Shown: one piece after another, positions 43,263 to 45,238 of the stretch
Position numbering within the stretch: the first letter of the stretch is position 1
Layout: each line of letters opens with the position of its first letter
From: Methanotrichaceae archaeon
GTDB lineage: Archaea > Halobacteriota > Methanosarcinia > Methanotrichales > Methanotrichaceae
Direction: 5' to 3'
Assembly (NCBI GenBank): GCA_963813075.1
Contig: CAWEXU010000009.1
Coordinates: forward strand, 15,432 to 79,431
DNA: 64,000 nucleotides
Notes under the pieces: generated by a model
What the model was told of the DNA's origin: nothing
Database searches by the model: none
The model's input: only the letters and a program-made list of their open reading frames with translations
Position numbers and translations under genes: made by a program

Positions 43263-43805
43263 TTAGAGCAATCCCTGCTCCTTCAGCTCCATCTTGGCCA
43301 GTTCCTCGTGCTTTCTCTCCAGGAAGCTGTAGACATTGCCATGAGGCGCACCATCCAGGAGCATCTCGATAGCCGATCGGGCCACTCTGATCTGCTCGGG
43401 GTAGCCGAGGATGGCTACCGTCTTGCCATAGACTGAGACCTTGGTGCCCGAGAGCCGCTCCATTATCTCCCGCGACCTTCCATCCTTGCCTATGATGCGC
43501 CCTTTCAGCCGTTCCATATCGCTTCTGGTGCCTGCCGTCTTGGATATATCGAGAACATCGAGCATCAGCATCTCGTCATCCAGTATTACCAGCGCCCGCT
43601 CCGGCGAGAAACCTCTGCCAATAGCCTTAACCAGGTCCATGACCCTCAATACCTGCAATGGATCTTCTATGGAATTGACAGAAACCGTACCCGTCTCGCT
43701 GTCTATCTCCAGAGAGGTCTTTGTCTTCTCTTCTATGAATTGCTTCATGGAACCGTTGGGGCCCACCAGCACTCCTATCCGTTCTTCTGGGATCTTTATA
43801 TCCAT
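43263..43805 (-). CDS. KH-domain pre-rRNA processing protein (Dim2/Pno1)
   Basis: KAIGRGFSPE, GRIIGKDG, VYGKTV. Confidence 0.92.
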   Translation of the reverse strand: MDIKIPEERIGVLVGPNGSMKQFIEEKTKTSLEIDSETGTVSVNSIEDPLQVLRVMDLVKAIGRGFSPERALVILDDEMLMLDVLDISKTAGTRSDMERLKGRIIGKDGRSREIMERLSGTKVSVYGKTVAILGYPEQIRVARSAIEMLLDGAPHGNVYSFLERKHEELAKMELKEQGLL

Positions 43806-43807
43806 TG

Positions 43808-44647
43808 TCAGTCTCCTATATCTTGATCTGCTACTCTCTCTTGATTTGGGTCTTCGCTCTCTTTTATCTTTTCAGCTTTATCCTTCTCGATCCGGGCATA
43901 GATCTCCTCGGATGAGCCTATGGAATACTTTTTTTGAAAATAATGGACGATATTGGCAACGTCGCGCTCCAGGAACCTTCTGGCCATGGGATGGTCCAGG
44001 GTGACTGATTGTCCCATATCGATTATCACCGGCTCGCCATCATCGTAGAGGATATTAAACTCGCTCAGGTCGGCATGAACCAGACCGGCCTGATTATAGA
44101 GCAGGGACATGTATTCTACGATCTTCTGGTAGATGCGCTCGGCCTCTATGGATTCCAGCTCGACATCCTTCAGAGGGGGTGCAACATGATCTCCCGCGCC
44201 GACCAGGTCCATCACCAGAATATTCTCTTTCATAGCGATGGCATGGGGCACCCGCACACCAACCTCTTCGGCCCGCAGGAGGTTGCGGTACTCCTTGCGG
44301 GTCCAGGCGGCGACGATAGCTCTTTTCGTGCCCTTGACGCTTCCAAATCTCGGATCGCCATGCAGGTAATCCTGCATCACATTGAAGTTGCTGGTAGAAA
44401 TGCGATAGATCTTGAGGGCAAGCTCTTTGCTGCCCACCAGAGCCCGGAATATATTTGCCTCTTTTCCGGTGCAGATGGACCCTCCAAGGGCATCGATGAC
44501 CCCCTTGCTGGCCATGCTGTAAAGGTCCATCAGGGTTCGCTTGTCAAAGACTGCATCCTGGACATTCTGGTCATCGGAGTTTTTGATCCTGGTACGAAGA
44601 ACATCAACGCGGGTATCAAAATCTTCATCCTTGCTGCGCCTGCTCAT
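43808..44647 (-). CDS. rio1: RIO1 kinase/ATPase
   Basis: TGKEANIF, LVHADLSEFNIL, IDMGQSV. Confidence 0.93.
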   Translation of the reverse strand: MSRRSKDEDFDTRVDVLRTRIKNSDDQNVQDAVFDKRTLMDLYSMASKGVIDALGGSICTGKEANIFRALVGSKELALKIYRISTSNFNVMQDYLHGDPRFGSVKGTKRAIVAAWTRKEYRNLLRAEEVGVRVPHAIAMKENILVMDLVGAGDHVAPPLKDVELESIEAERIYQKIVEYMSLLYNQAGLVHADLSEFNILYDDGEPVIIDMGQSVTLDHPMARRFLERDVANIVHYFQKKYSIGSSEEIYARIEKDKAEKIKESEDPNQERVADQDIGD

Positions 44648-44663
44648 GATTTGTCTATCCGGC

Positions 44664-44984
44664 CTATGAAGAGCCCTTCAGAAAACCTTTGCGCTGCAGC
44701 CAGTCCACCTGGGGGCCGGTGTATCTCCAGACCACATCCGCCTTCTCATTCTGGAACTCCCAGGGGATGATTATGACCACGTCGCCCTCTCGGATCCAGA
44801 TCCTCTTCTTCATCTTTCCCGGTATGCGGGCCATCCTGGTTACGCCATCCAGGCCTCTTACCTTGATGCGATTGGAGCCAAGCAGGCTTTCCACATGACC
44901 GAATATCTCTCTATCCTGTTTGCGGGGGAGGCGAACCCTGGTTATTACTGCTCCTTCCTCCGCACCATGACCTCTATTGTACAG
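44664..44984 (-). CDS. eif1A: Translation initiation factor aIF-1A, probable CTG start
   Basis: [16 protein letters not shown]; conserved RVRLP N-terminus upstream of the track's GTG; GAGGTGA SD 4 nt before the CTG. Confidence 0.92.
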
Positions 44985-45164
44985 CTTATCACCTCAAATA
45001 ATAATTGCAGATTTTTGATTAGATGCCGGATCGATTGGGACCGTCCGCAGGATTGAATCGCTATCTGGCCCATTTGCAGCCAGAATCGCCTGATCCCGCG
45101 TCCCGCACATCTCAGTTGAAAATGGCGCTTAAATAGTTAAAGCTTGTGTCGATCCAAATCCTAA

Positions 45165-45238
45165 TGGGCCCGACGCGATTCGAACGCGTGATCCCCGCCG
45201 TGTGAAGGCGATGTCATAACCAGCTAGACCACAGGCCC
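45165..45238 (-). tRNA. tRNA-Val(CAC)
   Basis: GGGCCTGTGGTCTAGCTGG...CCTT-CAC-ACGG...GTTCGAATC...GGGCCCA cloverleaf. Confidence 0.95.

Follow-up and report, generated by a model that had tools for sequence, protein, structure and literature searches.

A conserved CUG start codon in the aIF1A gene of Halobacteriota and its possible part in start-codon stringency feedback

Introduction

The gene for bacterial initiation factor IF3, infC, starts at AUU and is subject to translational autorepression. Eukaryotic eIF1 is autoregulated through the poor context of its AUG, and eIF5 has an upstream open reading frame (uORF) circuit. The logic of the infC and eIF1 loops is that a weak start on the main ORF is apt for a stringency-raising factor, since a surplus of the factor lowers its own synthesis.

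For archaea, the question of whether non-AUG starts serve translational control was posed as open by Asano (2014; PMC4705826, excerpt). The excerpts of a 2020 review list only AUG, GUG and UUG as archaeal starts and contain 0 occurrences of “CUG” or “autoregulat” (PMC7531240). Here we describe the start of the gene for aIF1A, a factor essential in Haloferax (PMC3828320, excerpt), in a 64,000-nucleotide stretch of a Methanotrichaceae genome (the window; GCA_963813075.1, contig CAWEXU010000009.1).

A preliminary description of the window had likened this gene to infC and eIF1, and the analogy is imperfect. One trait of infC-type control, a conserved non-canonical start in the factor's own gene, is present in aIF1A (91/92 loci in the family, 154/182 in the wider sample). 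Another, that the encoded protein be the chief discriminator against non-canonical codons (IF3, eIF1, aIF1), is absent: aIF1A only cooperates with aIF1 in the excerpts of the structural work (PMC6237735), and aIF1, their archaeal equivalent, has an ATG start in 26/30 loci. Like infC, aIF1A is the gene of an essential initiation factor with a conserved non-canonical start behind a Shine-Dalgarno (SD) sequence, in a system whose factors reject non-canonical codons. Unlike infC, it has CUG instead of AUU, it encodes an orthologue of IF1/eIF1A and not an IF3-like proofreader, and its autorepression is only proposed here. The likeness to eIF1 and eIF5 is that the amount of a stringency factor would depend on start-site stringency, with two factors (aIF1A and aIF2-gamma) maybe wired in. 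The differences from eIF1 are an SD-led prokaryotic mRNA, a non-AUG codon rather than a poor context, and an archaeal aIF1 that starts at AUG here. By analogy, aIF1A would work like infC-type control yet would not be a strict member of that class, the factor being a different one.

The aIF1A Locus and Its Start Site

45165..45238, minus strand: tRNA-Val(CAC), upstream of the promoter motif
45128..45148, minus strand: conserved BRE/TATA-like promoter motif, predicted from sequence
44994..44996, minus strand: in-frame TGA that overlaps the SD and bars any upstream in-frame start
44988..44995, minus strand: SD sequence GAGGTGAT, an 8-nt match to the 16S 3' end of the same genome
44664..44984, minus strand: aIF1A (eIF-1A family) coding sequence with CTG start, 106 aa; start placed by conservation
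43808..44647, minus strand: rio1 kinase gene with its own ATG, 16 nt downstream of the aIF1A stop
43263..43805, minus strand: gene for a KH-domain RNA-processing protein (arCOG04150)

The aIF1A frame lies on the minus strand; it runs from TGA (44996-44994) through GGT GAT AAG and CTG (44984-44982), and stays open to TAG at 44666-44664. The 106-aa product scores 161.9 bits against the NCBIfam model NF003085 for aIF-1A (cut-off 92; E 3.6e-48) and 138.1 bits against TIGR00523 (cut-off 102.9). Both scores exceed the curated cut-offs and place the protein in the aIF1A/eIF-1A family; its nearest named homologues are Methanothrix/Methanotrichaceae proteins with 89-92% identity. The TGA closes the frame, so that no in-frame start is possible upstream. 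The first in-frame ATG, GTG or TTG is GTG 44894, which lies within the conserved core and gives a 76-aa ORF without the RVRLP segment, whose R and P never vary across 15 aligned sequences. The preliminary description had drawn attention to the conserved N-terminus upstream of this GTG and to the frame shut by TGA four codons above CTG 44984 with no ATG, GTG or TTG between; both observations hold on the sequence.

The perfect GAGGTGA that it had placed 4 nt ahead of the CTG is likewise present, at 44995-44989, and the next T extends the match to the 16S rRNA 3' end (own genome, contig C6) to 8 nt. The SD core AGTG/T is invariant in a 21-sequence alignment. The spacing is typical of ATG starts in the same genome: GAGGT plus 6 nt, as here, has the top ATG share for the motif (47/311 sites, against 24/516, 8/308, 43/1636, 24/521, 76/1624, 49/520 and 26/311 at the other spacings), in a count too noisy for start calling that was later refined as a count of first starts behind strong SDs. 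The refined count gives ATG 59, TTG 17, GTG 6 and CTG 6, with CTG at background level and aIF1A as the top-scoring CTG candidate; both counts use a heuristic coding filter that over-calls ORFs.

Conservation of the CTG Codon

CTG occupies the SD-defined position in 91/92 loci of the family and ATA in one. Matches were found in 102/105 family genomes, and the 92 loci read include paralogues and come from part of these genomes; one of them (L051) carries a 1-nt indel and had its start assigned by eye. Inside the family aIF1A genes CTG makes up 161/504 leucine codons, so its constancy at the start is more than chance. In the 182 non-haloarchaeal Halobacteriota loci, family included, the start codons are CTG 154, TTG 18, GTG 4, ATG 3, ATT 2 and ATA 1, with three assignments by eye (L051; L411 and L412, from ATC to GTG) and two uncertain ones (L402, L422). 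The loci outside the family are a selection from class and phylum searches. CTG is present in 19/23 non-haloarchaeal families and absent in f14, f17, f25 and f28; TTG or GTG takes its place in f14, f17 and part of f7, and in other phyla.

Scoring that ignored codon identity and chose the start by SD fit alone returned CTG in 122/162 loci. The same scoring gave CTG in 62/78 named GTDB loci (Archaeoglobi, Methanoperedens, Methanocella, Methanotrichaceae and Methanosarcinaceae), a set that overlaps the 162 loci and from which 2/80 were dropped as too close to a contig end. The codons that replace CTG are all start-like, namely TTG, GTG, ATG, ATT and ATA, and never CTC, CTT, CTA or TTA. In 84/133 CTG loci the stretch from the upstream stop to the conserved core is free of canonical codons, and in 64/133 that stop lies at most five codons from the CTG. 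The spacer and the N-terminal codons that flank the CTG vary freely; so does the codon just before it, which can itself be a stop (TAA in L068-070, L122, L135 and L423). Paralogues also retain CTG (L068-070, L417-421), as do loci where rio1 is not adjacent (most Archaeoglobi-type loci).

A conserved internal leucine is excluded by codon identity and by the stops directly upstream. Judged from these comparisons, the CTG is a start codon under selection, neither a conserved leucine nor an error, and we regard it as very likely that aIF1A initiates at CUG 44984. Alignment of the orthologous start regions shows the non-AUG codon to be conserved, with ATG in only 3/182 loci, and no indel that would bring ATG 44968 into frame was seen.

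Several loci of the sample are unusual. In five family loci (L038-L040, L061-L062) an ATG stands immediately before the retained CTG; it is probably too near the SD, and may be a reversion or a blocked AUG. Apparent aIF1A starts at the isoleucine codons ATA, ATT and ATC occur in L042 and L401 (also P0009, P0011, P0013, L332 and L362), and in L401 a TGA lies directly ahead of ATT, an infC-like AUU start. The aIF1A frame breaks in three assemblies (L051 = G004, L536 = G082, and G041), probably through assembly errors, with the SD and CTG intact in all of them.

Distribution in Other Archaea

For haloarchaea (the class centred on G192, so assigned by sequence) the aIF1A starts are ATG in 27/30 and GTG in 3/30 loci, and these loci lack an SD but have a TATA-like box a short way upstream, as leaderless mRNAs do. 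Metagenome loci that favour other phyla (120 taken, 113 usable) were assigned by an N-terminal motif in 80 cases, and the other 33 were read by eye. None of the 80 has CTG (ATG 39, TTG 30, GTG 9, ACG 1, one miscall), while among the 33 CTG appears only in L363, a Methanosarcina-type sequence. Within the metagenome material, six of six putatively Methanobacteriales-like genes have TTG behind a strong SD (L285, L287, L323, L359, L360 and L366). The 45 MGK[KR]-type genes have ATG 20, TTG 19, GTG 4, ACG 1 and one miscall, and genes tentatively labelled marine Thermoplasmatota-like have ATG 19, GTG 5 and TTG 5.

A pan-archaeal CUG is unsupported, as the 113 usable metagenome loci start at ATG, TTG or GTG save L363. 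On the loci compared, CUG is a Halobacteriota trait, given the ATG of haloarchaea and the ATG, TTG or GTG in the metagenome loci of other phyla, with a looser UUG tendency elsewhere. One locus, L331 (apparently Bathyarchaeia-like), lacks a canonical codon and has ACG where the start aligns.

Leader and Short Open Reading Frames

44945..44968, minus strand: out-of-frame 7-codon minigene MVRRKEQ*, incidental
44994..45110, minus strand: 38-codon uORF in the aIF1A frame that ends at the TGA in the SD, likely incidental

The predicted leader is about 125 nt long here. Among relatives the leader differs in length and aligns poorly. The out-of-frame minigene, GAGGT-c-ATG from 44968, exists as had been described. 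As a regulatory part it was rejected: GAGGT with ATG recurs in only 5/70 loci, and its SD is just 1 nt from the ATG. The 38-codon uORF runs from near the predicted transcription start, and an ATG at that place was seen only in this genome. As a general termination-reinitiation device it was also discarded, with leader ATGs that differ in place and frame across the 69 leaders read. A search of the relatives' leaders for a conserved upstream or overlapping short ORF, as in eIF5-type control, found none. With regard to structured-leader autogenous control of the ribosomal-protein kind, the aIF1A leader in the window folds no better than its shuffles (z-score -0.16).

Control Genes and Translation

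Is the weak start a matter of genome-wide usage? The control genes and the start-codon counts speak for a gene-specific feature. aIF1 starts at ATG in 26/30 and at GTG in 4/30 loci, aIF5B at ATG in 28/30, EF-1alpha at ATG in 30/30, and rio1 at ATG in 92/105 aIF1A-linked loci; a motif search for a further control, S6e, returned no matches. In the annotation table of M. mazei, CTG accounts for at least 32 and TTG for at least 345 of the approximately 3,280 start-codon cells listed, that is, CTG for about 1% of genes.

One further factor stands out, aIF2-gamma (loci L426-L460), with starts at TTG in 27/35 and ACG in 2, phylum and family genomes taken together. The 30 phylum genomes have TTG 22, ACG 2 and ATG or GTG 6, and the family genomes TTG in 5/5; the gene was looked for in the assembly of the window (82.8% complete) and not found there. 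The ACG cases are two f14 genomes (L453, L455) that lack a canonical codon and apparently start there, and ATG occurs in three f7 genomes.

The aIF1A gene MM_RS17915 of M. mazei is annotated with a CTG start, and the supplement rows show that a CTG-annotated aIF1A gene is translated (PMC11456600). The Ribo-seq/RNA-seq ratios of the M. mazei aIF1A genes are 5.4, 9.9 and 13.2, beside 9.0 for aIF1, 4.2 for aIF2-alpha and 3.2 for aIF5B in the same rows (PMC11456600 supplement); the ratios are baseMeans divided in this analysis, may be inflated for short genes and leave start sites unmapped. As the aIF1A ratios are not below those of the other three factors, a strong translation penalty is not evident. 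Two RNA-library contigs from related strains span the CTG codon, and no change at 44982-44984 appears among the 40 of 207 matches listed; such contigs show neither start nor strand nor expression level.

Stringency Feedback and Alternative Readings

Why would a perfect SD be kept in front of a poor codon? There is, in our estimate, about an even chance that the weak CUG is retained for stringency feedback, by analogy with infC and eIF1, such that aIF1A synthesis falls when start selection is strict and rises when it is lax. The SD would pre-position the 30S subunit on the aIF1A mRNA, where CUG would pair with Met-tRNAi with one mismatch and be decoded via the normal aIF1/aIF1A/aIF2 route. Surplus aIF1A, together with aIF1, would then raise the rejection of CUG and close a negative loop, and aIF2-gamma, through its conserved UUG, may belong to the same circuit. 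The weak-start logic fits both aIF1A and aIF2-gamma.

The biochemical literature, in the excerpts that bear on this point, describes the roles of the factors as follows. Work with the P. abyssi system found that aIF1 hinders stable accommodation in the P site; aIF1A strengthens this dynamic, not stably paired state if aIF1 is there and stabilizes the tRNA if it is not (Monestier, 2018; PMC6237735). The feedback is plausible and would accord with this in vitro picture of aIF1A, jointly with aIF1, loosening the initiation complex. Bacterial IF1 assists IF3 in the rejection of non-canonical ligands (Gualerzi and Pon, 2015; PMC4611024). Accuracy is credited to aIF2 and aIF1 (PMC9226500), aIF1 is the discriminator of non-canonical codons and rejects AUU in vitro (Asano, 2014; PMC4705826), and the N-tail of eIF1A favours pairing (PMC6412873).

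Several findings count against stringency feedback: aIF1, the main proofreader, starts at ATG (26/30), the eIF1A N-tail favours pairing, the M. mazei ratios give no sign of a strong penalty, haloarchaea (ATG 27/30) and many other archaea manage without CUG, and five family loci have ATG directly before the CTG. Moreover, related genomes are not independent, and much of the conservation may go back to a single ancestral event, though retention is still needed. The wider proposal is an archaeal stringency circuit in methanogenic Halobacteriota and Archaeoglobi, in which aIF1A (CUG) and aIF2-gamma (UUG, ACG) are deliberately weak and turned down by strict proofreading. It would give the third domain an equivalent of the IF3 and eIF1/eIF5 loops, set on different factors and lost where the mRNA lost its SD (haloarchaea); we put it forward tentatively, as somewhat doubtful. 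The preliminary description had set the whole aIF1A-rio1-KH operon under the loop, which finds no support because rio1 has its own start.

Alternatively, CUG could be the true start and act as a fixed attenuator that sets stoichiometry without feedback, capping the aIF1A output of a strong promoter and SD that also serve rio1 and the KH gene. The position of rio1 directly after aIF1A in 105/170 loci tested agrees with this, as does the use of TTG or GTG in f14, f17, part of f7 and other phyla, as if any weak codon sufficed. However, a weaker SD would be an easier cap, yet the SD stays strong; CTG is kept in paralogues and where rio1 is not adjacent; and the Ribo-seq ratios in the M. mazei rows are ordinary. 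We consider this reading unlikely.

It is also conceivable, with still more reserve, that the CUG serves as a cross-regulatory sensor, one that responds chiefly to aIF1 or to the supply of ternary complex, balancing aIF1A and aIF2-gamma against aIF1 or the growth state. The start codons can be read in this way, as aIF1 has AUG whereas aIF1A (CUG) and aIF2-gamma (UUG) start weakly, and aIF1 is the factor that rejects AUU in vitro (PMC4705826, excerpt). A weak start would be harder to explain if aIF1A mainly favoured accommodation, as the loop would then be positive. On balance, such a sensor appears improbable.

A frozen and nearly neutral CUG, working almost like AUG behind a perfect SD, is compatible with the ordinary Ribo-seq ratios (PMC11456600 supplement rows) and with the independent reversion of some lineages to ATG or TTG. 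It is nonetheless very improbable: ATG and TTG are one substitution away, yet 154/182 loci spread over deep lineages still have CTG, with freely varying codons around it, and CTG starts only about 1% of genes in the listed rows of the M. mazei table. That there is no CTG start at all (a sequencing error, GTG 44894, the preceding codon, a frameshift from the minigene, or RNA editing to UUG or AUG) is hardly credible, even though the 76-aa form, or ATA/ATC one or two codons upstream, is a frequent choice of gene callers (P0187, P0188, P0204, P0249), as the 76-aa form is without the invariant R and P of RVRLP, the preceding codon varies and is sometimes a stop, the minigene is unconserved, and, as a weak point, the listed RNA-library matches show no change at the codon.

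Annotation and Significance

Some NCBI records of relatives start at the same CTG (P0161, P0170, P0202, P0217 and P0226). No report of a conserved CUG start or of feedback was found in open-access full text, a coverage outside which most subscription journals lie. As far as records and open-access print go, the CTG start is thus already known from individual records, and a statement of its conservation and function was not found.

A phylum-wide CUG in an essential factor would be a natural in vivo reporter of archaeal start-codon stringency in the genetically tractable Methanosarcina. The conserved CUG of aIF1A also suggests feedback on initiation fidelity in all three domains. NCBI/RefSeq calls for aIF1A use the same codon in some cases and elsewhere differ, with ATC, ATT, ATA, internal ATG/GTG or over-extended starts. 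For many methanogens the aIF1A protein in the databases has a wrong N-terminus, either cut short or extended too far, a point of consequence for studies of the N-terminal tail. In the listed rows for M. mazei, four aIF1A paralogues are annotated with CTG, ATC, ATT and ATG, and in the ATC paralogue, at least, a CTG follows two codons later; RNA polymerase subunit B'' is likewise annotated with CTG (PMC11456600).
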